Source: Candidatus Pacearchaeota archaeon (lineage in GTDB: Archaea; Nanobdellota; Nanobdellia; Pacearchaeales; JAPDKA01). From it: a DNA stretch of 64,000 nucleotides. Below the pieces are notes generated by a model. That model ran no database searches. It was not told the origin of the DNA and was given only the letters and a program-made list of their open reading frames with translations. Made by a program: the position numbers and the translations under genes. This document shows, one piece after another, positions 4,902 through 56,568 of the stretch. Positions within the stretch are counted from its first letter, which is position 1. Every line of letters starts with the position of its first letter. The stretch covers positions 5,074 through 69,073 of the forward strand of contig JAWAZI010000003.1 of the NCBI GenBank assembly GCA_038817835.1. Direction: 5' to 3'.

Positions 4902-4947
4902 TTTATTTTTTTAAATTTTATTTTTATAATGATAAATTTTATATTTT

Positions 4948-6547: not shown

Positions 6548-6569
6548 TATAAATAAAAAAATAAAAAAT

Positions 6570-6800
6570 TTATTCTGGTCGTGGAAGGATGTTTACACGA
6601 ATTTTTCCCTCTTCTTTATTTTTTTGTTCCTCGACGCTAACAACTATCTTTCCATAAGCTACATTCCTTGTTTCAGCTTTTGGTTTTATCATAAATAGGT
6701 TTGTTGTATTTAATGTTATCCATGTACCAATCAAAATAGTGATTATTAGTATTATTATAAGTATTGCAAATATATTCTTTGAAGTATTTTGTTTTTCCAT
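6570..6800 (-). CDS. small single-pass membrane protein (76 aa)
   Basis: N-terminal TM helix IFAILIIILIITILIGTWITL; in operon between surface-protein genes. Confidence 0.4.
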   Translation of the reverse strand: MEKQNTSKNIFAILIIILIITILIGTWITLNTTNLFMIKPKAETRNVAYGKIVVSVEEQKNKEEGKIRVNILPRPE

Positions 6801-6836
6801 TTTAACTTTATTTTTAATTTAAAGTATTAAATATTT

Positions 6837-7325
6837 TTAAATTTTTTGTATTATTTCTAAATAAAAACCATAAATAATTAACTTAATAAAATTTTTTATT
6901 AAAGTTTTTTTGTCTATTAAAACTTTATAATTTTCTATATCTTTTTTTTCTATATTAATAGTTAATTTTACACCTCTTTTTACCATTATTCCTTCTTTAG
7001 GTTTTTCTTCTTCAATTATAAAAATATAGATTTTATCTTCCAAATTTTCTTTCATATATATACTAAAATTAATTTCTTTCTCTTTTTGATTTTTTTCTAT
7101 TTCAATATTTCTTATAATATTTATAGCATCACTTGATGGGTAAATTTTTAATTTAATTGATTCGTTTTCTATATTAATAATTTTAAAACTTAAATTTACT
7201 AATTTTCCTTGTTGATAATCTATATTAATTATTCCTGGAGAAACTCCAAAACTTTTTACTAAATTAATATTTAATAAAATTAAAATAAAAATTAAAAATA
7301 TTTTTTTCATTTTATTCAATAACAT
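6837..7325 (-). CDS. secreted beta-rich protein with signal peptide (162 aa)
   Basis: Signal peptide MKKIFLIFILILLNINLVKS then GVSPGIINIDYQQGKLVNLSFKIIN beta-strand pattern; start overlaps giant gene end by 14 nt. Confidence 0.5.
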   Translation of the reverse strand: MLLNKMKKIFLIFILILLNINLVKSFGVSPGIINIDYQQGKLVNLSFKIINIENESIKLKIYPSSDAINIIRNIEIEKNQKEKEINFSIYMKENLEDKIYIFIIEEEKPKEGIMVKRGVKLTINIEKKDIENYKVLIDKKTLIKNFIKLIIYGFYLEIIQKI

Positions 7326-13748: not shown

Positions 13749-14058
13749 GAAAGGATTAGAAGCTATTTATGAAACTTTAGCACAAATATTAATTATAATT
13801 TTATTTTTTTCAGCTTGTATTTTTTTTATTATTTCATCAAAAAATATAGAGATTGAGAAAGTAGCTTTATTAGAAATTGTTTATGCATGTACTATTTTTG
13901 ACGATGCTATTATAGAGATAAATAGTAGTTATTTTAATGTTTCACAAATAAAATATGATAATGAAAACTTTTTTTTTGAAGGAAAAAACTATAAGGAAAA
14001 ATATTATGGAAAAAATAAAATAAAAATAGAAAATGGTATTATTGAAATAAAAAAATGA
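13741..14058 (+). CDS. prepilin-like protein with class III signal peptide (105 aa)
   Basis: MDKKG|LEAIYETLAQILIIILFFSACIFFII has a K-K-G cleavage-site-like motif followed by a hydrophobic helix; 8-nt overlap with upstream gene. Confidence 0.5.
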   Translation: MDKKGLEAIYETLAQILIIILFFSACIFFIISSKNIEIEKVALLEIVYACTIFDDAIIEINSSYFNVSQIKYDNENFFFEGKNYKEKYYGKNKIKIENGIIEIKK

Positions 14059-14420
14059 AATTTAAGGCACAGATAGATATAGTTTGGCTTTATAGATTTT
14101 TTTTAATAATACTTGTTACTCTAGGTTTATTACTTTTAGTAGGAAGATATAAAAGTATAGAGCTAAACAGAAAACCATTGAAAGCTGCAAGCATATTAAA
14201 TTTAATTTATTATTGTAAAGAAGAAAATTTAAGTAATTGTATAAATATTGATTCCAGTTTTTTTATAAGTTATAAACAAGAAAATTATGGAAATATTGCA
14301 TTAAAGACTTTATGTGAATCAAAAGAAAAAAATGTAGAATTAAAAGAGGATATTTTTTGTTTGAAAACACAAATTTATAAAGATAAAAAATTTGAAGAAA
14401 TTTTTATTGGAATAAAATGA
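14055..14420 (+). CDS. prepilin-like protein with class III signal peptide (121 aa)
   Basis: MKFKA|QIDIVWLYRFFLIILVTLGLLLLV; ATGA overlap with previous gene. Confidence 0.5.
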   Translation: MKFKAQIDIVWLYRFFLIILVTLGLLLLVGRYKSIELNRKPLKAASILNLIYYCKEENLSNCINIDSSFFISYKQENYGNIALKTLCESKEKNVELKEDIFCLKTQIYKDKKFEEIFIGIK

Positions 14421-14959
14421 AAAATAAAAAAGCACAAGAATCTTTATTAACTTTAATTGTAACTACTTTAATAATTTTGATTATTTTATTTTTATTTTTA
14501 GCCATATCTTTTGTCACACATCCTTTTTCCAAAAAGACAGAAATAATAACTAATGATATCTCAGAAACAAAAAATGCTTATTTAATTTTAAATTCCCTTA
14601 TTTTTTCTCAACTTAATGAAAATGAAAAGAAAGATTTCAATGTTGATTATTTTTATGAATTAATTTATTTATATTTAATAGAAAATCAAGAAAAAAAACA
14701 AAAAATAGAAGGAATAATAAGAAATAAATTAGATTTTTTGAAAGATTATATTTTTGTAATTTATTTTTATGACGGAGAAAAATATGAAGAATTATTAAAT
14801 TTAGAGAAATTAAGTATTTCTAGAAAAATAGAAAGAGGACTTCTTTTAATTCCTTCAGCTGTAATAGAATATGGATTAGAGAAAAAATATATAGCAAAAA
14901 TTATTCTTCCATATAATGAAGAAAAATTAATATTAATACTATTAATAATTATAAAATGA
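14417..14959 (+). CDS. prepilin-like protein with class III signal peptide (180 aa)
   Basis: MKNKKA|QESLLTLIVTTLIILIILFLFL, a close match to the archaeal type IV pilin signal (KA-Q-x-S-L); ATGA overlap. Confidence 0.55.
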   Translation: MKNKKAQESLLTLIVTTLIILIILFLFLAISFVTHPFSKKTEIITNDISETKNAYLILNSLIFSQLNENEKKDFNVDYFYELIYLYLIENQEKKQKIEGIIRNKLDFLKDYIFVIYFYDGEKYEELLNLEKLSISRKIERGLLLIPSAVIEYGLEKKYIAKIILPYNEEKLILILLIIIK

Positions 14960-15675
14960 TAAAGAAAAAAGCAATAGGTTTTTTTTCTTATTTATTAGTT
15001 TTTGCAACATTAATTTTATATTCATTTGCTTTAATAAAAATAGGAACTATTGAAAAATCTAAAATAGTGAAAAGTTTTGAAAAAATTGAAGATTTAGATA
15101 ACTTTAATTATTATATCGATAACTTTGATAATTACTTAAACTTATCATATCAAATTTCATATTATAATTCAATTTACAATTTTTCAAATTATTTTGATAA
15201 AAGTGAAAAATGTAAAATAATATATTTGAATGATATTCCATATTTTTCTATGGATTGTAATTTTGATAAAAATATTTTTTTAGATTTTTTGAATAAATCA
15301 TTTAATGAATATATAAAAAATTATTTAGATTATGGAAAAAAAATATATAATTTCAGTTATGAGTTTTCATGTAAAATTGATAATATAGTAAAATGCAATA
15401 TATTTATTTATAAAAATTTCAATATGGATATAATGAATATTAGCTTAAAAAAAGAGAAAAAATTTGAGCAACAAATAGATTTTAAATTTTTGGAGGAATT
15501 TCAAGAAATTAAAGAAAAATTAAAAAATGGTCAAATAGATCATGATGAATTTGAAATTGAGAAAAATGAAGATAAAAATTATATTTATACAAAAATAAAG
15601 TTAAAGAAAAAATTTTTAGTTGTTGGAGATATATTATCTAAACAAATTGAATTAAAATTTTATCATGAGAAGTAA
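14956..15675 (+). CDS. prepilin-like protein with class III signal peptide (239 aa)
   Basis: MIKKKA|IGFFSYLLVFATLILYSF; ATGA overlap with previous gene. Confidence 0.45.
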   Translation: MIKKKAIGFFSYLLVFATLILYSFALIKIGTIEKSKIVKSFEKIEDLDNFNYYIDNFDNYLNLSYQISYYNSIYNFSNYFDKSEKCKIIYLNDIPYFSMDCNFDKNIFLDFLNKSFNEYIKNYLDYGKKIYNFSYEFSCKIDNIVKCNIFIYKNFNMDIMNISLKKEKKFEQQIDFKFLEEFQEIKEKLKNGQIDHDEFEIEKNEDKNYIYTKIKLKKKFLVVGDILSKQIELKFYHEK

Positions 15676-25978: not shown

Positions 25979-28627
25979 ATGCCTTACAATTTTAAAGAAG
26001 TTGAGCAGGAATATAGCAAAATATTTGCAAAAATTTTTAAAGCAAAAATTAAATCAAAAAAACCAAAATTTTATTGTTTAGAAATGTTTCCTTATCCTAC
26101 AGGCAGACTTCATATGGGGCATGTGAGGAATTATACTATAGGAGATGCTGTTGCTAGAATGAAAAGAATGCAGGGATATAATGTTTTATATCCTATGGGT
26201 TATGATAGTTTTGGTTTACCAGCAGAGAATGCTGCAATAAAACATAAAATAAAACCAAATGAATGGACAGAGAAATGTATAAAAGATATGAAAGAGCAGC
26301 AAATTGCTATGGGTAATAGTTATGAATGGGATAGAGAAATTGCAACTCATAAACCAGAATATTATAAATGGAATCAATTTTTCTTTATCAAATTTTTTGA
26401 GAAAGGATTAATTTATAAAAAATTAGCTCCAGTTAATTGGTGTCCTAAATGTAATACAGTTTTAGCTAATGAACAAGTTCATAATGGAAGATGTTGGAGA
26501 CATGAAGATACAAAAGTAGAAATTAAATTACTTAATCAATGGTTTTTGAAAATTACAGACTATGCCGATGAATTACTTAAAGATTTAGAAAAATTAGATT
26601 GGCCAGAAAGAATTAAAGAGATGCAAAGAAATTGGATAGGAAAAAATGAAGGAACTTTAGTTAAATTTAAACTTGAAAAAAATGTTAATAATATAAATGA
26701 AATAGAAGTATTTACAACAAGAGTAGATACAATTTTTGGAGTAAGTTTTATTGCTATTGCTCCAGAACATCCTTTAACTTTAGAATTTGTAAAAGGCAAA
26801 GGAGAAAAAGAAAAAGAAGTAAAAGAATTCATTAGTAAAGTATTAATTCAAGAAAGATTTGAAAGATCGAGCAAGGAAAAAGAAGGAATATTTTTAGATA
26901 ATTATGCAATTCATCCTTTTACTAATGAAAAAATACCAATCTTTACTGCAAATTTTGTTTTACCAGATTATGGAACTGGAATAGTTATGGGAGTTCCTGC
27001 TCATGACGTTAGAGATTATGAATTTGCTAAAAAATATAAATTGCCAATAAAAGTTGTGATTAAAGCTGATAAAACAAATAATAGTGAAGTTTATGAAGGC
27101 TATGGAATTTTGATAAATTCAGGAGAATTTAATGGTTTAACTTCTCAACAAGCTATAGAAGAAATAACAAAAAAATTAAAAGAAAAAGGATTAGGAGATA
27201 AAAGTATTCAATTTAAAATTAGAGATTGGCTTATATCTAGACAACGTTATTGGGGTACACCAATACCAATAATTTATTGTGAAAATTGTGGAATTGTTAC
27301 AGAAAAAATAGAGAATTTACCAGTATTATTGCCAGATCCAAATAAAGTTAAATTTGGAGAAGGAAATCCTTTAGAAACTGTAAAAACCTGGCTGGAAACA
27401 AAATGTCCAAAATGTAATAAAAAAGCAAGAAGAGATAGTGATACTCTAGATACATTTTTTGATTCTAGTTGGTATTTCCTAAGATTTATTGATCCGAAAA
27501 ATGATAAGGAACCATTTAATAAAAATAAAATTAAATTATTTATGCCTGTTGATTTTTATATAGGTGGAGCAGAGCATGCTACTATGCATTTGATTTATGC
27601 TAGATTTTTTACAAAAGTTTTGAGAGATTTAAATTTTTTAGATTTTGATGAACCATTTTTAAAACTTGTTAATCAAGGAATTGTTACTTTGGGTGGAGAA
27701 GCTATGAGTAAAAGTAAGGGAAATATTGTTGATCCATTTGAGATAATTCCTAAATATGGTGCAGATGCCTTGAGATTTTTTATTTTGTTTAAGGCAATGC
27801 CTGATAAAGATCTAGAATGGAGTGATGAAGGAATAGAAAATATAAAAAAATTTCTTGATAAAATTATAGATATCTTTGAATATTGGAAAGAAAATAAAGA
27901 GAAATTAATTGAAAAATCTAAAAATAAACTTATAATAACAAGATTAAATTTATTAATAAAAGAATATACACAGCATCTTAATAATTTAGAATTTCCTTAT
28001 GCTTTAATTAAGCTTATGGATTTTGTAAAACTATTAAATAAAAATAAAGAAAAAATAAGTAATAATATTTTTAGATTAGTTTTTAAAAATTTAGCTTTGA
28101 TTATGAATCCTATAACTCCTTATTTAAGTGAATATTTATGGAAAGAGCTTGGATTTAGAGGCTATGCAAGTTTAGCTAAATGGCCAAATTTTAATGAGAA
28201 TAAAATTAAGGCACAATATGTTATAGAAGAAGATTACATTAAAAATTTGATATCAGATATCAATGAAATAAAAAAGATAATAAAAATAGAAAAAATAAAA
28301 AAGATAAATATAATTATTGCAGATAGATGGAAATATGAAATTTTTAAATTAATAAAAGAATGCAAAAATATTAATGAAGCGATTGAGAAAATAAAAAATA
28401 GTGAATATTCAGATAAACTTGATTATATTGTTAAATTTTTACCGAAATTTATTGGGAAGATAGACATTTTAATTGATCAAAAAGAAGAAATAAATATAAT
28501 TAAAGGAAATCTTGATGAGATTAAAAAAATATTTAAAGCAAAAATTAATTTGTTAAAGGAAAATAGAACAAAGGATGAAAAAGCTAAAAAAGCAATGCCA
28601 TTAAAGCCATCTATAATTTTGGAATAA
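25979..28627 (+). CDS. leuS: leucyl-tRNA synthetase
   Basis: HMGH (PTGRLHMGHVRNY) and KMSKS (MSKSKGN) class I motifs; 882 aa. Confidence 0.9.
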   Translation: MPYNFKEVEQEYSKIFAKIFKAKIKSKKPKFYCLEMFPYPTGRLHMGHVRNYTIGDAVARMKRMQGYNVLYPMGYDSFGLPAENAAIKHKIKPNEWTEKCIKDMKEQQIAMGNSYEWDREIATHKPEYYKWNQFFFIKFFEKGLIYKKLAPVNWCPKCNTVLANEQVHNGRCWRHEDTKVEIKLLNQWFLKITDYADELLKDLEKLDWPERIKEMQRNWIGKNEGTLVKFKLEKNVNNINEIEVFTTRVDTIFGVSFIAIAPEHPLTLEFVKGKGEKEKEVKEFISKVLIQERFERSSKEKEGIFLDNYAIHPFTNEKIPIFTANFVLPDYGTGIVMGVPAHDVRDYEFAKKYKLPIKVVIKADKTNNSEVYEGYGILINSGEFNGLTSQQAIEEITKKLKEKGLGDKSIQFKIRDWLISRQRYWGTPIPIIYCENCGIVTEKIENLPVLLPDPNKVKFGEGNPLETVKTWLETKCPKCNKKARRDSDTLDTFFDSSWYFLRFIDPKNDKEPFNKNKIKLFMPVDFYIGGAEHATMHLIYARFFTKVLRDLNFLDFDEPFLKLVNQGIVTLGGEAMSKSKGNIVDPFEIIPKYGADALRFFILFKAMPDKDLEWSDEGIENIKKFLDKIIDIFEYWKENKEKLIEKSKNKLIITRLNLLIKEYTQHLNNLEFPYALIKLMDFVKLLNKNKEKISNNIFRLVFKNLALIMNPITPYLSEYLWKELGFRGYASLAKWPNFNENKIKAQYVIEEDYIKNLISDINEIKKIIKIEKIKKINIIIADRWKYEIFKLIKECKNINEAIEKIKNSEYSDKLDYIVKFLPKFIGKIDILIDQKEEINIIKGNLDEIKKIFKAKINLLKENRTKDEKAKKAMPLKPSIILE

Positions 28628-33163: not shown

Positions 33164-34525
33164 TTAAATCTTTATTGTCATAAATTCTTCAACTAAAACT
33201 TTTTTTAATACATTTAAAAATTCTTCTTCTTGTGAAAATTTTATTAAAGCTCCTGCAGCATTTTCATGTCCACCATATTCAAAATCAAGATTGCTTTTTT
33301 TCTTTATTTTTTCTAATATCTTTGTTACATTTCTTGTTTTACTTCTTAAAGAAACTTTTATGCAGTCCTCTCTATAAGCTAAAGCTATTATAATAAAATC
33401 ATTAAAATCTAAAGAATTTATAAACATACTTGCTATAGTACCTATCAATTCAGGATTTACTTTATCTTTTAAATTAACTATTAAAAAATTTTCATCTTTT
33501 ATTTTTTTTATTTCTTTTTCAAAATATTTAATACCTTTAATTATTTCGTATCTATATTTTATGTATATTTCATCTGCAATCTCTTTTGATTTTCTTTTTC
33601 CTAGTAAAAAACTTAAAGCTATATATCCTTTATTTAAACTTCCACAGGCATTAATTAAAGTAGCAATCTCTCTAGCATCTTCTATTTTTTCAAAAATATT
33701 TATCAAATATACATTTCCTAAAATATCAATATCCCTATTGTCCATTATTCTTAAAGTAGCAATTGCTGTAATAAGCTTAGAAATTTCATCATTACTTAAA
33801 TCATTTAAACTTCTAATTTTTCCATTTATTTTTGTTTCTATTTTTAATTGTTCTAGAAAATTGAAAACATTTTTTATTTTTCCAGTTATTCCTGGAATAT
33901 ATATATTGCTATATTCTAATGCTTTATATAATGGTCTAGTATAAGAAAAAACTTTTAAACCTTTTTTGATTATGAAACTATTTTCACTTTCTTTCAAAAA
34001 TAAATTACTTAATTTGCTTAGATTTTTGTCTAAATTATCTCCTATCAATCCAAGTAAAGCGATTTTTTGAAATTGTTGTTTTTTTTCTTTATCAAATTCT
34101 CTTAAATTTGAAACAAAAAAATATGTTAATATACTCGCACTTGTTTGATAATCATCATTAAATAATCTATAATTTATTAAATTTATATTATCTTTTTTTA
34201 CTTCTCCTTCAATATAGTGATGATCTATAATAAAAATTGGAGTTTCAAATTCATCGAATAAATTTAAAAAATTTGATCCAAAATCTAAAAAGAAAATTGC
34301 TGAAAAATTTTTACTTTCTTTTTTTATATTTTCAATTTCTTCAGCTTTTAAATTTTTTAAAATTCTTACAAAAAATTTTTTATCTAAACTTAAAAAAACT
34401 TTTGCTATAATTGCAGCAGAACAAATTCCATCAGTATCATTATGGCAATAGATTGCTATTAATTTTTTATTTTCAATTTGATTAAACTTTTTTGCTATAT
34501 CTTTTATATATTCTAAAATTTCCAT
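33164..34525 (-). CDS. DHH/DHHA1 phosphoesterase (RecJ-like / GAN nuclease family)
   Basis: DHH motifs HNDTDG, IIDHH, and DHHA1 GGHENAAG. Confidence 0.7.
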   Translation of the reverse strand: MEILEYIKDIAKKFNQIENKKLIAIYCHNDTDGICSAAIIAKVFLSLDKKFFVRILKNLKAEEIENIKKESKNFSAIFFLDFGSNFLNLFDEFETPIFIIDHHYIEGEVKKDNINLINYRLFNDDYQTSASILTYFFVSNLREFDKEKKQQFQKIALLGLIGDNLDKNLSKLSNLFLKESENSFIIKKGLKVFSYTRPLYKALEYSNIYIPGITGKIKNVFNFLEQLKIETKINGKIRSLNDLSNDEISKLITAIATLRIMDNRDIDILGNVYLINIFEKIEDAREIATLINACGSLNKGYIALSFLLGKRKSKEIADEIYIKYRYEIIKGIKYFEKEIKKIKDENFLIVNLKDKVNPELIGTIASMFINSLDFNDFIIIALAYREDCIKVSLRSKTRNVTKILEKIKKKSNLDFEYGGHENAAGALIKFSQEEEFLNVLKKVLVEEFMTIKI

Positions 34526-34581: not shown

Positions 34582-34959
34582 TTAATAATTTGGAACAAAA
34601 TTTTTATCTAATATACCTTTTCTTTTATAATAATTTGTTAATATTCTTATTCTTGCTTCTAATATTTGCATAGCTCTTTTTGCTACATAATCATGTTTAT
34701 TTTTTTCAAAATGTTTTTTTAAATTTTTCATTTTTTTAATTAAATTTTCTAAATCAGATGGAAAATATTGAATATTATTCTCTCTTAAAATTTTTACCAC
34801 TTTCTTATTTATTATTTCCTTCAATTTTTTATTATATTTTTCTTTTATTATTTTCCCTATTTCATCAGATTTGTATCCTTGTTTATAAAGTTCAATAACT
34901 TCTTTTTCTATATTTTCTTTCTTTATCTTTTCTTTATTTTTACTTTTTTTATTTTTCAT
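34582..34959 (-). CDS. rps15: 30S ribosomal protein S15 (S13e)
   Basis: C-terminal KHDYVAKRAMQILEARIRILTNYYKRKG matches S15 HDxxxKRxL...R..L..Y signature. Confidence 0.7.
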   Translation of the reverse strand: MKNKKSKNKEKIKKENIEKEVIELYKQGYKSDEIGKIIKEKYNKKLKEIINKKVVKILRENNIQYFPSDLENLIKKMKNLKKHFEKNKHDYVAKRAMQILEARIRILTNYYKRKGILDKNFVPNY

Positions 34960-34994
34960 TATTGTTTATCAAATAAAATTTTATAAATTTTTAG

Positions 34995-35067
34995 TAGCCC
35001 CGCCCGGATTCGAACCGGGGTCACAGGCTCCAAAGGCCTGTATGCTTGACCGCTACACCACGGGGCT
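34995..35067 (-). tRNA. tRNA-Gln (anticodon UUG)
   Basis: Reverse complement agccccgtggtgtagcggtcaagcatacaggcctttggagcctgtgaccccggttcgaatccgggcggggcta; anticodon loop ctttgga. Confidence 0.8.
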
Positions 35068-35134: not shown

Positions 35135-35749
35135 CTATAGATTTTTTCCTTTATACCTTCTTCTTAATTCAACTTTTTTTAATTGTTCTTTTATTTTTTC
35201 ATTTTGTTCAACAAAATTAAAATAAGAATTTAATATTAATTTGCTTATTTCTTCATAAATTGAAAAATGTTTACTTTTTAATGCTTGTAAAAGTAAATAT
35301 ATATCTACAGCTTTATCTTCTATTCTATTACTATGGAATGCTAAACCAAAATCTATAAAGAATACTTTATCATTATTGAGAATCATATTACTTGTTGTTA
35401 AATCCCCATGAATTATATTTGCATTATGTAATTTTGCAATAGCTTTTCCTATTTTTTCAGCAACATTTTTTATTTCATCTTTTTTTAATTTTTCAAACCA
35501 ATCACTAAGTTTTTTACCTTCAATAAAATCCATAACTATTATAGCTTTTTTTTCATCAACTTTATGAACTTTTGGAACATCGATTAAATAAGATGCTTTC
35601 TCTAATATTCTTGCTTCTCTCCTTGTTCTATATTTTCTTAAATTAAAATCTAAAATTCTATTTCTATAATCTTTTTTAATTCTTTTTTTTATTAATTTAT
35701 TATTTTTTTTGTATAATACTGCTTCAGCACCAATTGCTATAATTTTCAT
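35135..35749 (-). CDS. bud32: KEOPS kinase Bud32 (PRPK/RIO-like atypical kinase)
   Basis: 204 aa; IHGDLTTSNMIL catalytic loop, FIDFGLAF DFG-like; typical Bud32 size. Confidence 0.75.
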   Translation of the reverse strand: MKIIAIGAEAVLYKKNNKLIKKRIKKDYRNRILDFNLRKYRTRREARILEKASYLIDVPKVHKVDEKKAIIVMDFIEGKKLSDWFEKLKKDEIKNVAEKIGKAIAKLHNANIIHGDLTTSNMILNNDKVFFIDFGLAFHSNRIEDKAVDIYLLLQALKSKHFSIYEEISKLILNSYFNFVEQNEKIKEQLKKVELRRRYKGKNL

Positions 35750-36345
35750 CTTATTATTACAATTTTATTTTTTCCCAATTTTTTTGCTTTATATAATGCT
35801 TTATCAGCTTTTTCTAAAGCTTCATTTATATTCCCTTTAAATTCAGATATACCAATACTTACTGAAACTTTTTCATAACCTTGAGGCAAATTTTTTCTTA
35901 CAGGTTTTATTTCTATATTGTTTATTATTTCTCTTATTCTTTTTGCTACATTTAATGCTTTAGCTGCATTTGTTTCTGGTAAAACAATTAAAAATTCTTC
36001 ACCTCCAAATCTAACTGCAAAATCTTCTTTCCTTATATTTTTTATTATTACTCCTGTAACAGTTTTTAGTGCTTCATCTCCTTGAAGATGGCCAAATTTA
36101 TCATTATATTTTTTAAAATCATCAATATCAATTAACATAATAGAAAAAGTTTTTTTATGTCTAATTGCTCTTGAAACTTCTTTTCCTAATATATCATTTA
36201 ACAAAGATTTATTCCATAAACCAGTTAAAACATCATGAGTAGCATAAAAATATAATTGTTCAAATAATTTTGATAAAAATTTTTCTTTATGTTTTTGTTC
36301 TAATTTTTTAATTTCTTTTTTAATTTTTTTTATATCAATTGGCAT
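35746..36345 (-). CDS. GGDEF-domain diguanylate cyclase (stand-alone, 199 aa)
   Basis: DVLTGLWNKSLL...SIMLIDIDDFKKYNDKFGHLQGDEAL...RFGGEEFLIVL with intact GGEEF active site and RxxD (RKED) I-site 5 residues upstream; 4-nt overlap with bud32. Confidence 0.8.
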   Translation of the reverse strand: MPIDIKKIKKEIKKLEQKHKEKFLSKLFEQLYFYATHDVLTGLWNKSLLNDILGKEVSRAIRHKKTFSIMLIDIDDFKKYNDKFGHLQGDEALKTVTGVIIKNIRKEDFAVRFGGEEFLIVLPETNAAKALNVAKRIREIINNIEIKPVRKNLPQGYEKVSVSIGISEFKGNINEALEKADKALYKAKKLGKNKIVIIR

Positions 36346-36381
36346 AATAAAATTTATATTCTAAAATTAAAAAATTTTTAT

Positions 36382-38952
36382 ATGGATAAAAAAATTTTAT
36401 TAGAGAATTTGCAAAAAAATTGGGAAAAGTATTGGAAAGTAGATCTTTTTAATGATGGATGGATAAGACAAAGATGTAAGAAATGTGGGAAATATTTTTG
36501 GGCAAAAGAAAGACAAGATTATTGTAATGATTCTAGTTGTGTTGGTTATAGATTCATTGATGAAAATTATAGTAATCTTAAAGCTATAGATTATATTGAA
36601 ACTTGGGAAAAAATAAAAAATTTTTTTATTAAGAAAGGACATAAAGCATTAAAGAGTTATCCAATAGTCTGTAGATGGTTTCCAGGTTTATATTTTACTA
36701 TAGCCTCTATAGTTGCTTTTCAAAGAAAAACAAATGGAAAAACAGTATTCAATTTTCCTGCAAATCCTTTAATAATCCCACAATTTTGTTTAAGATTTAA
36801 TGATATTGAGAAAGTTGGTTTTTCTGGAAGACATGCAACAGCTTTTGTTATGGTTGGTCAACATAGTTTATATAATGGAAAAAAGGGATACTGGAAAGAT
36901 GAAGCAATAAATTTAGATTATGAATTATTAACTAAAGTTTTTAAAATTAGGCCAGATGCTATAACATTTATTGAAGATGTCTGGATTGGAGAAGGAGCTT
37001 TTGGCTATAGCCTAGAATATTTTGTTTATGGTTTAGAGCTAGGGAATTGTGTATTTACAGAATTTTTGGGAAATATTGATAATTACCAATTAATGAAGGA
37101 AAAAGTAATAGATATGGGTGCAGGATTAGAAAGATTTAGTTGGATAATAAATAAAACTTTAACCCAATATGATTCTGTTTACAAGAAACAACTTAAATTT
37201 TTGAGCAATTATTATGATTATGATGAAGATCTTGTTAAAAAATTTATAAAAAATATTTCTCTTGTAGATTTTGATAAATTTTTAATACATGAAACCATTG
37301 ATAAAATTTTAGATAAAATAAAAATAAATAGAGAAATTTATAATAAAAAAATTCTTCCAAGAATATCTGCTTATATTATTTGTGATCATTTGAGGACTTT
37401 AGTTTTAGCTTTAAGTGATTATGCAATTCCAAGTAATGTTGGTGGTGGATATAATTTAAGAACAATTTTGAGAAGAATTTTAAATTATAAATCAAACCTA
37501 GATGATTTTGATATATTTAAATTAGTTAAATATGAAATTTCTACAATAAAAAAATTTAAAAAAATTCCAAAAGATATTATCACTTTTTTTGCTGAAATAT
37601 TTGAAAGAGAAAAAAATAAATTTGAAGAAAACAAAGAAAAAGCAGAAGCAATTACAAAAAAAATTATTCTTGAAATTAAAGAAAAAAATCAAAAAATTAT
37701 AGATGCAGAAAAATTACTTCTGTTGTATCAGAGTTATGGTATATATCCAGAAAGTATAGAAAAAATAGCAGATAAAGAAGGATTAATTTTAGAAATAGAG
37801 AAATTTAGGGAGATATTAGAAAAATTAAAAAAAAGAAGTAAAGAAATAAAAGAGAAATGGCAAGAAGAAATTGATAATTTAATTGAAAAAAATGAAATTA
37901 CCTCTACAAATCTTTTATATTATGATAATCCCCTATTACTTGAAACAAATTCAAGAGTTATTAAACAATTTAGTTATGACGGAAAATTTTGTCTGATTAC
38001 AGAGTCAACTATATTCTATCCTGAAGGTGGAGGTCAAGTTGCTGATAGTGGATTTATTAATGATGCAAAAGTTTTAGATGTTAAAAAATATAAAGGAATT
38101 GTAGTTCATTTTTTAGATAGGCCTATAAAAACTAATGATGTCTATCTTAAAGTTGATGGAGAAAGAAGAATGCAAATTAGACAACATCATACATCATTAC
38201 ATATTTTAAATTATGCTGCAAGAAAAATTTTAGGAAACCATATATGGCAAGCTGGAAGTTACGTTGATGATAACTATGCAACTTTAGATGTTTCTCATTA
38301 CAAAAAACCAAATTTAGAAGAAATTGAAGAGATTGAAAAATTAGTTAATGATATTATAAAGAAAAATATTGATATAAAATTTGAATGGTTAAAGAGAGAA
38401 AAAGCAGAAAAAAAATATGGTTTTAGAATTTATCAAGGTGGGGCAATTCCTAGTGAAAATTTAAGAATTGTTAATATAGGGGATTTTGAAATTGAAGCTT
38501 GTGGAGGATTACATTTAACAAATACTTCTCAAGCAGAAATTTTTAAGATTATTAATGTAGAAAAAATATCTGATGGTGTTATAAGATTTAAAATTGTTGC
38601 TGGTAAAAAAGCAAAATCGATAGAAGATGAAAAAGAAATAGTTGATGAATTAGTAAAAATTTTAAATGTTACTAGAGAGGAAGTTATTGACGCAGTTGAA
38701 ACTGTTTTTAATAGATGGAAAAAATTGAGAAAAGCATTAAGAAAATCAAAAAAACCTTTTGAGCTAGAATTTTGGCAAGAATTTATAAAAAAATATAAAT
38801 TTAAAAAAATTCCTTTAGAAGATAGAAAAATTGTTGAGAAACTATTAAATTTTTTAAATATACAAAAAAATTATCTCATTGTAAATGTTAAAAAATTTGT
38901 TGAGCAGCATGACGAAATTATAAAAGAATTAAAAAAATTGAACGAAAATTAA
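36382..38952 (+). CDS. alaS: alanyl-tRNA synthetase (archaeal type)
   Basis: N-terminal zinc-ribbon-like RQRCKKCGKYFWAKE; editing domain HxxxH (HHTSLHILNYAARK) and CGGLH. Confidence 0.85.
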   Translation: MDKKILLENLQKNWEKYWKVDLFNDGWIRQRCKKCGKYFWAKERQDYCNDSSCVGYRFIDENYSNLKAIDYIETWEKIKNFFIKKGHKALKSYPIVCRWFPGLYFTIASIVAFQRKTNGKTVFNFPANPLIIPQFCLRFNDIEKVGFSGRHATAFVMVGQHSLYNGKKGYWKDEAINLDYELLTKVFKIRPDAITFIEDVWIGEGAFGYSLEYFVYGLELGNCVFTEFLGNIDNYQLMKEKVIDMGAGLERFSWIINKTLTQYDSVYKKQLKFLSNYYDYDEDLVKKFIKNISLVDFDKFLIHETIDKILDKIKINREIYNKKILPRISAYIICDHLRTLVLALSDYAIPSNVGGGYNLRTILRRILNYKSNLDDFDIFKLVKYEISTIKKFKKIPKDIITFFAEIFEREKNKFEENKEKAEAITKKIILEIKEKNQKIIDAEKLLLLYQSYGIYPESIEKIADKEGLILEIEKFREILEKLKKRSKEIKEKWQEEIDNLIEKNEITSTNLLYYDNPLLLETNSRVIKQFSYDGKFCLITESTIFYPEGGGQVADSGFINDAKVLDVKKYKGIVVHFLDRPIKTNDVYLKVDGERRMQIRQHHTSLHILNYAARKILGNHIWQAGSYVDDNYATLDVSHYKKPNLEEIEEIEKLVNDIIKKNIDIKFEWLKREKAEKKYGFRIYQGGAIPSENLRIVNIGDFEIEACGGLHLTNTSQAEIFKIINVEKISDGVIRFKIVAGKKAKSIEDEKEIVDELVKILNVTREEVIDAVETVFNRWKKLRKALRKSKKPFELEFWQEFIKKYKFKKIPLEDRKIVEKLLNFLNIQKNYLIVNVKKFVEQHDEIIKELKKLNEN

Positions 38953-51207: not shown

Positions 51208-54200
51208 ATGAAAAAAGGGGTGAAATTTTTAATATTTTTCATTTTGATAGCATTAATTTGGATAATTTTTTTATTATTATTTAAGTCTAGAATTACAGGA
51301 TATAGTATAAATGCTAAAAATTTTTATTTAGTTGGAGAAAATTTAGAAGGATTTTATAATTTAAAATTAAGGCAAGGAGAATTATGGCCATTAGATGCTA
51401 AAGTTATAGTAAGAGCTAATAATATAACTAAAGAATTAAGCTTAAGAGATTGGTTAGAACAAAGCGGAATTGATTATGAAATAATCTATGGAAATTTTTA
51501 TGTTTATGATAAAAATATTTATGGTTATGGTGAAGGTTTTGGAAAAATTGGGAAATATATTGAAAAACCAAATATAAAATTTGAGATAAAAATATATTCT
51601 AAAGAAAAAGAAGAAAAGCCAGTAGAAGAAGAACATCCGGTGGAAATAAAACCAGAGATACCTGTTGAACAGCCAGCTCCAATCGAGCAACCTCAAGAAA
51701 CAATTGAACAACCACAAGAAGAAATACCATCTCAAACAGAGCAACCAACCGAGGTTGAACAACCAGTAGAACAACCACAACTACCTCCAGAAGAAGCAGA
51801 AACTCCAACAGTTCCTGAACAACCAAGTGAACAACCTGAAAAACCAGAAGCAGAAAAAGTTCAGGAGGGAATTTTTAGTAGATTAATAAAATATGGTCCA
51901 TTAAATTTTTTCTATTTCTTTAGAAATTTAGTTGGTTTTGCTATAACTAATGAAATTGAAGGGGAAAAAATAATTCAAGCATATGTTAATATTGATAATC
52001 CATATATTTTAGAGATAAATGAAAATCAATATGCTGAGTTTGTTAGTGGAAGTGTAAAAATAAATGATATTCCTGCTGATGATAACTTCATTAAATTTGA
52101 GAAAAAAGATAATAAAATAATTGTAACTACAGATTATAAAATTGAGAGGGAAGGATTTGGGAAAGAATTTTTAGGAGAAGAATTTTACATTAACCTAAGT
52201 TTAAATATTTTTAATTTAACTTTTGATAAGGAAGGTGTTTATGATTTAGATGTTGAGATAATTTATAATAATATTATTCTTGATAAAGCATCAGCTAAAA
52301 TATTTGTTGAAAAATCAAATCAAACTTATTATATTATTAAATTAATTGATGAAAAGGGAAGAGTAATAAAAGAAATTAATATAAGCAAGAACGAAACTAG
52401 AGAAGGGATTAAATTAAAAATAAAAGAAGAAAAAATTATTTTAGAAAAACCCGAAGAAATTAAGGTTTTAAGCTTAATTCCATTTGTAAAGGCTCAGGTA
52501 ACTCAATTACCTAAAGCTCAATTACCTATATGTGGAAATAATGAATGTGAAAGTGGTGAAGATACTAGCAATTGCCCTAGTGATTGTCCTTTTACTATTT
52601 ATAATTATAGAGGTGGAGATATTTCAGTTCAATTTATTTCTCCATCACAAGAATTAATAAATAAAGGAATATTAACAGAGATAGTTTATTCTACCCCTGC
52701 AGACTTTGATTATGCTTTGATAAAGCTTAACAAAATAGATCCATCTTTAGAAATATCTAAAATTTTAAAATGTGAGAATTGGAATGCTATAACTGCTTCT
52801 TGTGTTGGCAATTTTATCCCTGTTGATATTCCTTTTATTGATTATGGAGATTATATTGTTATAAACATAACAAATTTTTCTGCTTATGCTGGTGGTGCTG
52901 GCTATAATGCATCATTAGTTATTTGGGATAGTAGTGATGCTAGAGCTATAGGCATAAACGAAACAATTTTCTTTTATGCAAATTATTCAACTTATCCTGA
53001 AGGAATACCAATAAATGATAGTAATGGCATTTGTTTAGCATTTTTTAGTTTTGAGAATAGACCAGGATTTTCTGCTGAGATGCAATTTAATTATTCATCT
53101 ATGCTATGGGAAACAAGTTTTTTAACTACAGAAGATATGGTTGGTATTAATAATTTTACAGTTAATTGTTCCTCTAGCAATTATGATAATTTAACAGCAA
53201 GTGATGAATTTATAATTCAAAATATTAGTGTTAATATTATAACTAATTGTACAGAAATAAATCAATCTGGAATTTATAGATTAAATGGTAATTTAACTGC
53301 TACATCATCTTCAAGTTTTGATGGAGCATGTATAAAAATTGCTTCTGATAATGTAATATTTGATTGCAATAATTATGCTATTATTAATGATCTAACAGAT
53401 CCTGTTTCTTATATTATAAAAATATCAAAAAGAACATTAGAAGGAGTAGGAACTGGCTATAATGTTAGTATAAAAAATTGTGAAATTTATAATGCATATT
53501 ATAAAGGAATAGAAATTGATACTTTTAATAATCTAAATTTAGAAAATATAAAAATTCTTAATCAAGAAGAAGGTTGTTGTGGTATAGATATATATGATTC
53601 AAATAATATAAGTATAAATAATTATTATTATGAAGGTAGTGGAGCTTTTGGCTTAACAATTAGTAATTCTTCATATTTAATAGCAAGAAATATTAATATT
53701 ATTAATTATCTTTATGGTTATGAAATAATTGGAGAATGTATTAGTGCTAATATATTAAATAATTCTATTTTTGATGAAGGATTTTTGAATTGTAGTATTA
53801 ATTTAAGGTTGAATGGAGGATCTAATATTAATATTTCTAACTTTTATATTACTCATGGTGATATTAGGGCTGGGGGAGAAAATATTATTATAGAAAATAA
53901 TACATTTGAAGATATATACTCTTTTGAAGCAATTGATTTTTGGGGTAGCGAGAATATTTTCATAAGAAACAATATTTTCAAAAATGTTAAAGGGGAATAT
54001 ATTAAAGTAGATTCCTCCAATAATTTTGAAATTTATAATAATACATTTTATTATAATTCTTCTGAGGGTTTGTTTAATATAATATATTTATCTGCTTCAA
54101 ATAATGGAATCATTAAAGATAATAAATTTATTTATGATGACTTTACAGATTCTTCACAGCCTTTAAATAATTCATCATTTATAGAGATAGGTAATGATAA

Positions 54201-56568
54201 TAGTGAAATAATTAAATTTGAAAATAATTATTTTAAATGGGAAGAAAATGAATTTTATTTTGATGCATTGATTATAAATACTACATCTATTTATGCATAT
54301 AAAGGTTCACCACCATCTTCACCAAATAATTTAATACCATTAAATAAATCATTGATTATATATCAATATTCCCATAATAATAGAATAGATTTAAATATTT
54401 CTTTTGATCCTATTTATAACAATATTAGTTATTATAAAATTGATTTATTAAATGATTCTGGCTGGCTTCAACAATACACAGAAATAATAAATAATAAAGC
54501 ATATACTTATTTTGAAACTCCAGAATTGAATGAAACATATGTTTTTCTTAGTTTATTTGGAGAAGCTCCAGCAGAATGCACTTGTAATTCTTGTGAAGAT
54601 TGCATGAATAAACTTAATAATCCTTCTTGTACAGAAGTAAAACTAGTTAACGATATAATAAATATAGATAGAAATCCATGTATAAATATAAGTTTTTCTA
54701 ATAAAATTTTTGATTGTCAAAATTATAGTATAATAGGAAATGAAACTACTTTAATAGATTATGTTGCAATTTTAATAAATCCAGCAAGCAATGTAACAAT
54801 AAAAAATTGTAATATAGAAAGATTTTATAATGCTATTTTACTAGGAATAGGGTCTCGCTCACCAAAGAATTACAATTTTATTAATATAATTAATAATACT
54901 TTATTGAATAATTCAAGAGCTATAACTTACTCTGAAGAAATTGAAATTTATAATAGCCAAATAGAAAATAATACTTTAATTGATAATATTTTTGGTATTA
55001 AATTCAAAGGTTCTAATAATATAATAAGAAATAATAAAATTAGAGGTAGATATAGGAGTAATGCTACTCACATGGAAACCATTGGAATTATGATTTATCA
55101 ACCAAGTAGAAGTACTTTAATTGATAATAATATAGTATGTAAACATGTATATGATATAAAAGCTGATACCTATGCTAGTGGTATACAAAACTATTGTGAT
55201 GTAGCTATTAACTTTAGTGATTCAAATGCTAGTGGTTGTAAGAAAAAAACAGATATTAATTTTGATATAAAATCTTATTTATTAAAATCTGATAAAATAC
55301 CAATTATAAAATTTGATGTTATTCTTTATTCTAATATTAGTGCAAAAGCAAGATTATATAGTAAATATAATTGGAAAGAAGAATGGAAACCAAATTTTGG
55401 AGCATCATCTTGTATTCGTTTATTGGGAGGATCTATACAAGAATCTAGTGAAGAATTAACCTTACAAGAATCAACTTCTAAAGAATCAATTATTACATCT
55501 AAACTTATACAAGAATCTGTTGGAGAAGAATCAATTTCACTACCACCTCCACAGGAAAAGCCTTCACTTCCACCACCAGAGCCAATTCCACCATCTAAGC
55601 CACCATCTAAACCTCCAATAATATTTACTCTTTGTTCAAGTAGCGGAGAATTAGTATCAGTATCTAGCGGGGATGAGATATTTGCTGAAGGTTATGGAAT
55701 TGTTTCTCCAACAGAGCCATGCATGGAAGGAAGAGAAAGCTATAATATAACTTTCCAAGACGCATTTCCATATAAGGATTGTAGTAATAACACAATAATG
55801 GAATTTGAATATTATAAAATTGAGTTTGAGAACTTTTGTAATAAGAAAGAAAGTGATGTTTATTTAAGAAAAACAAATGAATTAATAAAATCTCCATCAA
55901 AACAAACAGGAATTAACTTTGTTTCATTCACAACAGATATAAGATATGGTGGCATAGCTGTTGCATCTGATGGAAAAATGGCAATTGTTACACCTGAGGA
56001 TATAGATTGTACAATTCAATTACCTATTGAATTAAAAGCCGTATCGCCATGGATAACTCTTTCAAGTTCATCAGAGTTACTAACTTCTTGTATAAGTAGA
56101 AAACTTCAAGAAGAAAACTCATCAGCAAGATTGATATATGCTAGTTATTGGGATGAAGAAAGACAAATGTATGTTGGCCATCCTGCTAGCTTATTTGCAA
56201 ATGCATATATTAAAGATTTCCCAATAAAATTAGGAAAATCTTATTTTGTAGATGTTAATAAAAATTTAACATTCACACAATTTGGAAAACTTCCACCAGA
56301 ATCAATTTGGCATGAAATTAAAGCTGTTGGAGAAAAAATTAATATTATAACTTTAACTCCTCATCAACAAAATATAACAACAGTTAGACAACTTTGTAAT
56401 TTATCGTTTGTAAATCCATATGGATATGTTGAATATTGGGATCCAATAAATCAAAATTTTTTACAAGTTGAATCTCAGCGATGTATGTTTTCAACAAATA
56501 CAGCTTTAGATTTATCTATCCCATATAGAGTTAGTGTAATTAAAAACTATTCTGGGCTTATACCATAA
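51208..56568 (+). CDS. giant glycosylated cell-surface protein (1786 aa), paralog of 7312-11934: signal anchor, Pro/Gln/Glu-rich linker, parallel beta-helix repeats, C-terminal Pro-rich segment
   Basis: N-terminal TM; shared blocks with the 1540-aa protein (FGKEFLGEEFYINLSLNIFNLTFDKEGVYDLDVEIIYNNIIL vs FGEEFLGDIHIFNFPLENFNIKLNNTGVYEFHVKFYYKDIVF; CENWNAITASCVGNF...INITNFSAYAGG vs CKNWSIEEFKCYGEW...FNITNFSGISGG; beta-helix entry NCTEINQSGIYRLNGNLT...CIKIASDNVIFDCNNYAI). Confidence 0.75.
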   Translation: MKKGVKFLIFFILIALIWIIFLLLFKSRITGYSINAKNFYLVGENLEGFYNLKLRQGELWPLDAKVIVRANNITKELSLRDWLEQSGIDYEIIYGNFYVYDKNIYGYGEGFGKIGKYIEKPNIKFEIKIYSKEKEEKPVEEEHPVEIKPEIPVEQPAPIEQPQETIEQPQEEIPSQTEQPTEVEQPVEQPQLPPEEAETPTVPEQPSEQPEKPEAEKVQEGIFSRLIKYGPLNFFYFFRNLVGFAITNEIEGEKIIQAYVNIDNPYILEINENQYAEFVSGSVKINDIPADDNFIKFEKKDNKIIVTTDYKIEREGFGKEFLGEEFYINLSLNIFNLTFDKEGVYDLDVEIIYNNIILDKASAKIFVEKSNQTYYIIKLIDEKGRVIKEINISKNETREGIKLKIKEEKIILEKPEEIKVLSLIPFVKAQVTQLPKAQLPICGNNECESGEDTSNCPSDCPFTIYNYRGGDISVQFISPSQELINKGILTEIVYSTPADFDYALIKLNKIDPSLEISKILKCENWNAITASCVGNFIPVDIPFIDYGDYIVINITNFSAYAGGAGYNASLVIWDSSDARAIGINETIFFYANYSTYPEGIPINDSNGICLAFFSFENRPGFSAEMQFNYSSMLWETSFLTTEDMVGINNFTVNCSSSNYDNLTASDEFIIQNISVNIITNCTEINQSGIYRLNGNLTATSSSSFDGACIKIASDNVIFDCNNYAIINDLTDPVSYIIKISKRTLEGVGTGYNVSIKNCEIYNAYYKGIEIDTFNNLNLENIKILNQEEGCCGIDIYDSNNISINNYYYEGSGAFGLTISNSSYLIARNINIINYLYGYEIIGECISANILNNSIFDEGFLNCSINLRLNGGSNINISNFYITHGDIRAGGENIIIENNTFEDIYSFEAIDFWGSENIFIRNNIFKNVKGEYIKVDSSNNFEIYNNTFYYNSSEGLFNIIYLSASNNGIIKDNKFIYDDFTDSSQPLNNSSFIEIGNDNSEIIKFENNYFKWEENEFYFDALIINTTSIYAYKGSPPSSPNNLIPLNKSLIIYQYSHNNRIDLNISFDPIYNNISYYKIDLLNDSGWLQQYTEIINNKAYTYFETPELNETYVFLSLFGEAPAECTCNSCEDCMNKLNNPSCTEVKLVNDIINIDRNPCINISFSNKIFDCQNYSIIGNETTLIDYVAILINPASNVTIKNCNIERFYNAILLGIGSRSPKNYNFINIINNTLLNNSRAITYSEEIEIYNSQIENNTLIDNIFGIKFKGSNNIIRNNKIRGRYRSNATHMETIGIMIYQPSRSTLIDNNIVCKHVYDIKADTYASGIQNYCDVAINFSDSNASGCKKKTDINFDIKSYLLKSDKIPIIKFDVILYSNISAKARLYSKYNWKEEWKPNFGASSCIRLLGGSIQESSEELTLQESTSKESIITSKLIQESVGEESISLPPPQEKPSLPPPEPIPPSKPPSKPPIIFTLCSSSGELVSVSSGDEIFAEGYGIVSPTEPCMEGRESYNITFQDAFPYKDCSNNTIMEFEYYKIEFENFCNKKESDVYLRKTNELIKSPSKQTGINFVSFTTDIRYGGIAVASDGKMAIVTPEDIDCTIQLPIELKAVSPWITLSSSSELLTSCISRKLQEENSSARLIYASYWDEERQMYVGHPASLFANAYIKDFPIKLGKSYFVDVNKNLTFTQFGKLPPESIWHEIKAVGEKINIITLTPHQQNITTVRQLCNLSFVNPYGYVEYWDPINQNFLQVESQRCMFSTNTALDLSIPYRVSVIKNYSGLIP
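51613..51853 (+). repeat. low-complexity Pro/Gln/Glu-rich (EQP-type) linker-coding region with locally elevated GC
   Basis: Imperfect repeats of gaacaacc(a/t)ca encoding EQPQ/VEQP units. Confidence 0.6.

Follow-up and report, generated by a model that had tools for sequence, protein, structure and literature searches.

Introduction

In a census of 2018, the only archaeal GGDEF domain was found in Methanocella arvoryzae (CAJ37382); the same work described a protein of 'Ca. Micrarchaeum' that combines a REC domain with an inactivated GGDEF domain, and questioned other bacterial-type regulators in archaeal draft genomes as contamination (Galperin et al. 2018, PMC5847659). For GGDEF proteins of archaea, an essay of 2022 held that they 'need to be confirmed in archaeal contigs' (PMC10086821), and the only cyclic dinucleotide messenger established in Archaea is cyclic di-AMP (c-di-AMP), with its diadenylate cyclase DacZ (PMC10249747). 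Here, we analyse a GGDEF gene located on a 64,000-nucleotide stretch of DNA (contig JAWAZI010000003.1 of assembly GCA_038817835.1, hereafter the window) from a Candidatus Pacearchaeota archaeon, where it directly precedes bud32, the gene for the KEOPS kinase/ATPase. On balance, we consider it probable that this is a genuine Pacearchaeota gene encoding a minimal diguanylate cyclase, i.e. a synthase of cyclic di-GMP (c-di-GMP), that it was acquired from Bacteria in the distant past and has descended vertically since, and that its link to bud32 is one of position.

The protein is already public under a GGDEF label, as are several of its relatives from metagenome-assembled genomes (MAGs) of Pacearchaeota. 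GenBank entry MEM1577678.1, from a 72-kb contig and titled 'MAG: GGDEF domain-containing protein [Candidatus Pacearchaeota archaeon]', matches it exactly. With these labelled relatives, the gene, to which an earlier annotation made from the letters of the window (hereafter the sequence-only reading) had drawn attention, is not a singleton. Full-text literature searches on such enzymes and on c-di-GMP in archaea, DPANN archaea included, returned no description of a GGDEF clade in DPANN archaea or Pacearchaeota; in one groundwater study, diguanylate cyclase genes were counted over pooled 'ultra-small' MAGs, with archaea and bacteria taken together (PMC9938205).

An intact GGDEF protein with a canonical active site

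The open reading frame (ORF) of the GGDEF gene (Table 1) is the longest in its frame, and the N-terminus of its product is common to a homologue with 82% identity. Pfam model PF00990 matches the protein over the entire profile (positions 1-161 of 161, residues 35-194) with E = 1.3e-46 and 158.8 bits against a cut-off of 23.8, while TIGR00254 matches with E = 1.2e-50 and 171.5 bits against a cut-off of 37.4; agreement this strong is far beyond chance. The sequence-only reading, which had proposed the PF00990 search as a check, had described an intact GGDEF protein with all the motifs of an active cyclase, and each motif that it named is in place and conserved. The protein consists of a helix of about 32 residues and a canonical GGDEF domain, and no sensor domain is found in it.

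Residues D73, N81, D90, R105, D108, R112, G114, G115, E116, E117, F118 and K188 are invariant in all 15 aligned members of the clade described below. In a broader alignment of 76 sequences that takes in bacterial enzymes, the same residues remain invariant apart from E116 and F118, which are kept in at least 90% of the sequences. D73, N81, D90, R112 and K188 also align with the same residues in the structure 3ign and in WspR and DgcR. We take these positions to correspond to PleD D327 (metal), N335 and D344 (guanine-specifying), and R366 and K442 (phosphate), and the RxxD motif to be the I-site, which many active diguanylate cyclases have, but not all. A degenerate active site had been named beforehand as the finding that would speak against a working enzyme; the alignments show the full catalytic set instead.

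Structural comparisons agree with these assignments. Forty-seven diguanylate cyclases in the PDB match the protein at E <= 1e-10, the best by sequence being 3ign (1.4e-31), and identity to solved diguanylate cyclase structures is 33-39%. An AlphaFold2 (AF2) model computed from the 76-sequence alignment has a mean predicted local distance difference test score (pLDDT) of 94.4 and displays a long helix (residues 5-36) ahead of the GGDEF fold, with pLDDT values of 75-93 within the helix. The top Foldseek matches of this model in the PDB are diguanylate cyclases, with E-values down to 1e-19 and a root-mean-square deviation of 1.6-2.2 Å over the domain. They include the stalk or coiled-coil GGDEF proteins SiaD (7e6g), GCN4-WspR (3i5c) and DgcB (6ttr), with TM-scores reaching 0.84 (query-normalised). 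The N-terminal helix is predicted to be amphipathic over 32 residues and, in the monomer model, resembles the stalks of these three proteins.

Archaeal residence of the gene

All 69 ORFs called across the window were scanned against Pfam (E <= 1e-3 or 1e-2), and the informative matches are all archaeal or universal. Among them are deoxyhypusine synthase, RadA, an archaeal histone, TFIIE-alpha, L21e, RpoF, RpoD, a DnaG-type Toprim protein, RtcA, RNase HII and six aminoacyl-tRNA synthetases. GC content is uniform along the window (0.19-0.28). The GGDEF gene itself has a GC content of 0.223, against a gene mean of 0.235 ± 0.043, and a GC content at third codon positions (GC3) of 0.05, against a mean of 0.109 ± 0.033; it is thus fully ameliorated in composition and matches its host genome in both GC and GC3. 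A contaminating bacterial contig, the other finding that the sequence-only reading had regarded as fatal to its claim, is contradicted by a contig and neighbours that are archaeal both in the window and in independent assemblies.

Conserved gene order and purifying selection

The gene order found in the window, with alaS divergent from a string formed by GGDEF, bud32, tRNA-Gln, S15 and recJ, recurs in four further lineages (L040, L001, L005-7 and L008-9), on contigs drawn from JGI, ENA, NCBI and Logan assemblies. The GGDEF proteins of these lineages are 82% (P0005, L040), 59% (P0006, L005-7), 58% (P0007, L001) and 57% (P0008, L008-9) identical to that of the window. In the syntenic loci, identities of the neighbours amount to 64-77% for alanyl-tRNA synthetase (AlaRS), 68-75% for Bud32, 52-56% for RecJ and 53-59% for S15. 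The GGDEF protein and its neighbours have hence diverged to about the same extent, as vertical co-inheritance predicts. Between the window and L040, the ratio of nonsynonymous to synonymous substitution rates (dN/dS, Nei-Gojobori) is 0.16 for the GGDEF gene, 0.18 for alaS and 0.30 for bud32. The GGDEF gene is therefore under purifying selection and is constrained as strongly as the essential synthetase gene alaS.

The 4-nt overlap of the GGDEF gene with bud32 is also found in L040, L001 and L008/L009, whereas the two genes are separated by a 74-nt gap in L005. An AlaRS-anchored scan of species-representative genomes retrieved only AlaRS genes at 38-47% identity, from Aenigmatarchaeota, Thaumarchaeota and other archaea, and none of these loci has a GGDEF gene or bud32 beside alaS. 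Horizontal acquisition, which the sequence-only reading had put forward, is plausible, but only as an ancient event, given the ameliorated composition, the co-divergence with neighbouring genes and the purifying selection.

An archaeal clade of stand-alone GGDEF proteins

Judged by its sequence relationships, the window protein belongs to an old archaeal clade. Among the homologues retrieved, a compact set of stand-alone GGDEF proteins of small size (192-266 aa) stands out, with 49-100% identity and scores of 182-418 bits, below which the scores fall to bacterial multi-domain enzymes at no more than 140 bits. Neighbour-joining (NJ) trees were built on 168 domain columns for 117 sequences (200 bootstraps) and for 220 sequences (100 bootstraps). 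In the smaller tree, monophyly of the 15 closest proteins has the support of 159 of 200 replicates and the bud32-linked subclade that of 182 of 200. In the larger tree, the clade comprises 24 cluster representatives, including further GenBank 'Pacearchaeota' entries, with a support of 58/100. The phylogeny called for in the earlier annotation thus recovers an archaeal clade; it identifies no donor.

Nine proteins, among them P0029 and P0071, form a second archaeal GGDEF group, which is supported by 81/100 replicates of the larger tree. We considered a single origin for all archaeal GGDEF proteins and do not claim it: this second group is sister to the window clade with 117 sequences, but the arrangement is not recovered with 220, and NJ on a domain of 168 columns cannot resolve it. 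In the second group, the GGDEF gene sits between archease and Hjc, and what comes after it is in every case a conserved ORF of about 116-121 aa (35-45% identity; L121:6753-7118, L122:1092-1442, L042:2226-2579), whose product may be a partner protein. This ORF has no Pfam match and no detectable GGDEF similarity; the impression by eye that it could be a degenerate half GGDEF domain was discarded after an hmmsearch with the clade profile (E of at least 0.05, negative or near-zero scores).

A metagenome scan with the clade alignment, of which 80 loci were kept, gave identities of at most 51% by re-blast (48% in the scan table), and most of these 80 loci have a GC content of 0.4-0.7 and no other gene in common with the window. 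These matches show that the motifs FGHLQGD and DDFKKYND are not peculiar to the clade. One clade member, P0128, is encoded on an 85-kb contig with a GC content of 0.42 (L123:1-12678, GGDEF gene at 6001-6678), among many small ORFs without family matches, and near genes for a DUF87/TraG-like ATPase, a CARDB surface protein and a stand-alone receiver domain. These surroundings may represent a mobile element, or an organism with response-regulator input.

Neighbouring genes in the window

The genes flanking the GGDEF gene are those that the sequence-only reading had listed, namely bud32, the tRNA-Gln gene and an alaS whose best match is the archaeal-type model, and the ATGA common to the GGDEF gene and bud32 is the 4-nt overlap that it had described (Table 1). 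Bud32 is recognized by TIGR03724 with E = 2e-58 (197 bits, cut-off 125), and its best PDB matches are the Kae1-Bud32 protein of M. jannaschii and human TP53RK. AlaRS is matched best by the archaeal-type model TIGR03683 (E = 5e-200), with 667 bits, below the cut-off of 745, and it passes the general alaS model TIGR00344 with 487 bits against a cut-off of 457. Beyond bud32, the tRNA-Gln gene is kept in L001, L005, L008 and L040, and the S15 gene is syntenic in L001, L005 and L008. The RecJ-like protein was considered as a pGpG or cyclic-dinucleotide phosphodiesterase, but its DHH_CID and archaeal RecJ/GAN matches make it best read as a replication-associated nuclease.

The spacer between the divergent starts of the GGDEF gene and alaS is 37 bp long in L040 and 91-320 bp long in L005, L009 and L001. 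As the 36 bp of the window must hold both promoters, the GGDEF and alaS mRNAs are probably leaderless. In archaea, kae1 is often fused or adjacent to bud32; no kae1 (Peptidase_M22/TsaD) was found in the 64-kb window, and bud32 is separated from it here. Just past alaS, L001 and L005 carry the gene for Sua5/YrdC, an enzyme of N6-threonylcarbamoyladenosine (t6A) synthesis, which in L005 is broken up into separate ORFs of 107 and 75 aa.

Elsewhere in the window, the gene for leucyl-tRNA synthetase (LeuRS; 25979-28627, + strand) is matched by the Pfam editing-domain model tRNA-synt_1_2 over its whole length (E = 1.2e-64); we take this model to be typical of bacterial-type LeuRS, and the gene may thus be bacterial in origin. 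The window also encodes two predicted surface proteins of giant size, 1540 and 1786 aa (7312-11934, - strand; 51208-56568, + strand), with DUF2341, Cna_B and right-handed beta-helix/NosD domains, and small membrane-anchored ORFs without family match cluster beside the first of them (4239-7325). A 587-aa protein (11985-13748, + strand) combines a PIN domain, a type II/IV secretion-type ATPase core and a KH domain, and downstream of its gene, 13741-15675 encodes four small proteins with a predicted membrane location.

Table 1. Features of the GGDEF locus and of four related loci with another gene context (window positions unless a locus is named)
Feature	Position	Strand	Description and basis
GGDEF gene	35746..36345	-	199-aa stand-alone GGDEF protein, ATG start; ORF list, Pfam, TIGR00254
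N-terminal amphipathic helix	residues 5-36; 36238..36333	-	Lys/Glu-rich stalk, presumed dimerisation element; AF2 model
GGDEF catalytic domain	residues 35-194; 35764..36243	-	Pfam match, pLDDT >93 throughout
I-site RxxD	R105-K-E-D108; 36022-36033	-	followed by FAVRF (five residues), then GGEEF; read from DNA
Active-site motif GGEEF	residues 114-118; 35992-36006	-	read from DNA
ATGA overlap, GGDEF stop/bud32 start	35746..35749	-	4 nt; ORF coordinates and sequence
bud32	35135..35749	-	KEOPS kinase/ATPase, 204 aa; TIGR03724 arch_bud32, PDB matches
tRNA-Gln(TTG)	34994..35067	-	ARAGORN, Rfam
Ribosomal protein S15 gene	34582..34959	-	archaeal S15/S13e type; Pfam Ribosomal_S15 9.9e-11, NF006331 7.7e-27
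recJ	33164..34525	-	archaeal RecJ/GAN-like DHH-DHH_CID-DHHA1 protein; Pfam; RecJ_archaeal 6.5e-77, below its cut-off
GGDEF-alaS spacer	36346..36381		36 bp, almost pure A+T, between divergent starts; sequence
alaS	36382..38952	+	AlaRS, divergent, synteny anchor; TIGR03683, TIGR00344
Archaeal RNase P RNA	3811-4062	-	RF00373, 164 bits, full model in 252 nt (compact version); Rfam
GGDEF locus L124 (P0137, Pacearchaeota MAG)	L124:5029-9121		upstream CCA enzyme, Na+/H+ exchanger, P-type ATPase; downstream NrdR, ATP-cone NrdD, NrdG
GGDEF locus L002 (P0017)	L002:6001-10319		upstream CCA enzyme, Na+/H+ exchanger; downstream NrdR, class II ribonucleotide reductase
GGDEF locus L010 (P0009)	L010:1893-4894		upstream P-type ATPase; downstream ATP-cone NrdD
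GGDEF locus L011 (P0010)	L011:5001-7812		upstream LGT (opposite strand); downstream ATP-cone NrdD

Other gene contexts in the clade

In four loci of the clade (L124, L002, L010 and L011), the GGDEF gene is not near bud32 and lies 120-210 bp upstream of ribonucleotide reductase (RNR) genes, on the same strand. This adjacency spans two RNR classes and GGDEF proteins that are only about 50% identical to that of the window; being more widespread and covering more divergent members, placement ahead of RNR genes may be the more ancient arrangement. In L010, the start of the GGDEF gene overlaps the upstream P-type ATPase gene by 4 nt. As bud32 is absent beside these other clade members and a comparable overlap joins the GGDEF gene to an ATPase gene, the overlaps look like the product of genome compaction. 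From these gene orders, the bud32 pairing thus looks like a lineage-specific position rather than a functional partnership. The emphasis that the sequence-only reading had placed on an 'unprecedented pairing' with Bud32 therefore falls away, since the pairing is confined to one subclade and elsewhere the GGDEF gene adjoins NrdR/RNR genes or overlaps a P-type ATPase gene.

A P-type cation ATPase gene precedes the GGDEF gene in L010:1-2606 and L124:2355-5667. In L124 (2355-5667) and L002 (4098-6687), the opposite strand carries, a short way upstream of the GGDEF gene, the gene for a Na+/H+ exchanger that has a TrkA_N domain. In bacteria, c-di-AMP controls cation transport (PMC10249747). NrdR, which is rare in archaea (PMC9110341), binds c-di-AMP, as was first reported in Listeria, with a dissociation constant of about 3 uM for the NrdR of S. 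coelicolor (PMC12051234). By analogy, a link of NrdR or the ATP-cone to c-di-GMP may be entertained as a hypothesis only, a lead from four related loci that lie outside the gene order of the window.

Discussion

From sequence and model, the most likely function of the window protein is that of a constitutively dimeric, product-inhibited diguanylate cyclase. Its N-terminal helix would pair two subunits in the manner of the zipper or stalk helices of WspR fusions, DgcB and SiaD, two GTP-loaded GGDEF domains would condense 2 GTP into c-di-GMP, and product binding at the RxxD I-site would cap the output. As the protein has no sensor domain, the level of the messenger would be set mainly by expression and GTP supply and not by an external signal. 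The gene would have entered the ancestor of the archaeal group from Bacteria long ago, to be inherited vertically under purifying selection thereafter. It would now head a compact string of housekeeping genes (GGDEF-bud32-tRNA-Gln-S15-recJ), in which bud32 would be translated by termination-reinitiation at the ATGA.

Several points weigh against this proposal. Catalysis is predicted, for the window protein as for its relatives, and helix-mediated dimerisation is suggested by a monomer model and by analogy. Reviews up to 2023-2025 hold that diguanylate cyclases are confined almost entirely to bacteria and that no archaeon has yielded c-di-GMP (PMC10249747, of 2023). The sequence-only reading had suggested a search of the rest of the genome for EAL, HD-GYP and PilZ partners; in the parts of the genome in view, none came to light. 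No EAL, HD-GYP, PilZ or MshEN domain occurs among the 69 ORFs of the 64-kb window, the gene lists of the related archaeal loci name none either, and no c-di-GMP-I or c-di-GMP-II riboswitch reaches the Rfam gathering score in the window or in 107 kb of related archaeal loci. A cyclase without visible turnover or receptor partners is unusual, in a view that covers only a fraction of each genome. The deep phylogeny, in which the two archaeal groups are not robustly sister, fixes neither a donor nor a number of acquisitions. Finally, the overlap with bud32 is kept in four of the five lineages of the subclade and may reflect a functional link.

This last point leads to the idea that the GGDEF protein and Bud32 form a functional module, in which the kinase would control the cyclase, much as the kinase SiaB acts on SiaD by way of SiaC, which binds the stalk helix of SiaD, or in which the product or the use of GTP would modulate KEOPS and t6A synthesis. 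The shared gene order in all five lineages and the repeated overlap are what such a module would lead one to expect; moreover, Foldseek ranks first SiaD bound to its activator SiaC (7e6g), with a comparable stalk helix, and the SiaD model NF038266 is the second-best NCBIfam match. Its 164 bits, however, fall short of the equivalog cut-off of 290, no SiaA/B/C-like genes (including PP2C) occur in the window, and Bud32 is here an ordinary KEOPS Bud32. Members of the same clade outside the subclade are not beside bud32, the two genes lie 74 nt apart in L005, and the string, as compact genomes commonly show, runs on into housekeeping genes of unrelated function (tRNA-Gln, S15 and recJ). We therefore hold a module to be quite unlikely. 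A protein that does not synthesize c-di-GMP in vivo, making cyclic GMP-AMP (cGAMP), linear pppGpG or another cyclic oligonucleotide, or binding GTP or c-di-GMP, is to our mind unlikely too. The lack of c-di-GMP turnover and sensing genes in the window and related loci would be in keeping with it, cGAMP-making GGDEF enzymes of the Hypr type exist (cited in PMC10249747), and there is weak homology to the palm domain of Cas10 (PF22335, 4.3e-06, 27.3 bits; PADLOC Cas10, 2.2e-10, 38 bits), a related domain that makes cyclic oligonucleotides. The 159 bits of the GGDEF match are nevertheless far above the 27-38 bits of the Cas10 models, and no cas, CRISPR or cyclic oligonucleotide-based antiphage signalling system (CBASS) genes are found in the window. 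A reading of the locus as a defence system was likewise dropped, as PADLOC returned only this weak homology for the GGDEF protein and generic kinase matches for Bud32. Hypr enzymes, as Hallberg and colleagues reportedly described in 2016, have a serine at the position of PleD D344, where the window protein has Asp (D90); if the correspondence with PleD N335 and D344 assumed above is right, the invariance of N81 and D90 in the clade speaks against a Hypr-type product. A mere binding protein would not be expected to keep the full catalytic set invariant.

DPANN archaea are generally thought to be host-dependent, and the product could be aimed at the host or partner cell of an episymbiotic archaeon, which would explain why neither receptors nor phosphodiesterases are found in the sequence in view; signalling toward a bacterial host or partner was among the suggestions of the sequence-only reading. 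The very large surface proteins and the PIN-ATPase-KH protein encoded in the window are typical of cell-contact lifestyles and would fit such a role. We nonetheless judge it very unlikely: no export or injection system is linked to the GGDEF gene in any of the contexts examined, the protein has neither signal peptide nor membrane segment and is modelled as a soluble helix and domain, and the known hosts of DPANN archaea are themselves archaea, for which no response to c-di-GMP is known. That the gene is an artefact, whether a mis-assembled or mis-binned bacterial fragment or a very recent functionless transfer, is a natural suspicion for a family that is overwhelmingly bacterial and whose earlier archaeal reports were suspected as contamination (PMC5847659, PMC10086821). 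The gene, however, lies 35 kb inside a 64-kb stretch of archaeal genes, the junctions on both of its sides recur in independent assemblies from four sources, and its host-like composition, low dN/dS and divergence in parallel with its neighbours leave this explanation extremely improbable and effectively refuted already.

Returning to the favoured reading of an anciently acquired diguanylate cyclase, a further step would be that Pacearchaeota run a vertically inherited intracellular c-di-GMP pathway that dispenses with the bacterial partner domains and acts on archaeal-specific targets. We regard this step as possible, though doubtful. By analogy with the neighbourhoods of related members, candidate targets would be the NrdR/ATP-cone regulators of RNR and cation transporters; if true, c-di-GMP would tie GTP supply to deoxynucleotide synthesis or ion balance in a minimal cell. 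The recurrent adjacency to NrdR/RNR genes in related lineages thus offers a concrete candidate for the target of the messenger, and the finding raises the question of what senses and removes this messenger in a genome of less than about 1 Mb without the usual partner domains in view. For one lineage, the locus supplies the confirmation in archaeal contigs that had been called for, through an intact enzyme, a conserved gene order, co-divergence, purifying selection and a clade of relatives. It also makes the archaeal use of c-di-GMP directly testable, as a soluble protein of 199 aa should express easily, and it would surprise specialists of archaeal signalling.

Comparison with known systems

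Among archaeal systems, c-di-AMP signalling by DacZ involves another fold and another nucleotide, and no DAC domain was seen in the window; the likeness lies in the cation-transport neighbours of the GGDEF gene in L002, L124 and L010, and a functional parallel drawn from them is speculation. The archaeal GGDEF proteins reported earlier, CAJ37382 and that of 'Ca. Micrarchaeum', are isolated cases, one of them inactivated, with contamination suspected, whereas the window protein is intact and belongs to a clade of about 24 representatives with synteny and purifying selection; CAJ37382 is set apart from this clade by its description, not by its sequence.

Further likenesses are with bacterial enzymes. 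DgcB of C. crescentus (coiled coil and GGDEF domain, 6ttr), the engineered GCN4-WspR (3i5c) and SiaD of P. aeruginosa (7e6g) share with the window protein the succession of one helix and a GGDEF domain. TM-scores with DgcB (6ttr_A) are 0.84 (query-normalised) and 0.87 (target-normalised), and the sequence alignment with 3i5c starts at residue 20 of the window protein, inside the helix. DgcB and SiaD have further N-terminal parts or a partner (SiaC), none of which is evident for the window protein. PleD of Caulobacter and WspR of Pseudomonas are alike in the full-length domain, the GGEEF motif, the spacing of RxxD, the conserved Asp, Asn and Lys residues and the fold; the window protein differs from them in having the 32-residue helix in place of a receiver or sensor domain, in the absence of EAL, HD-GYP and PilZ domains from the sequence in view and in its archaeal host. 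As an enzyme, it is thus an ordinary member of a very well known family, and what is unusual is its archaeal host and its firm rooting there.

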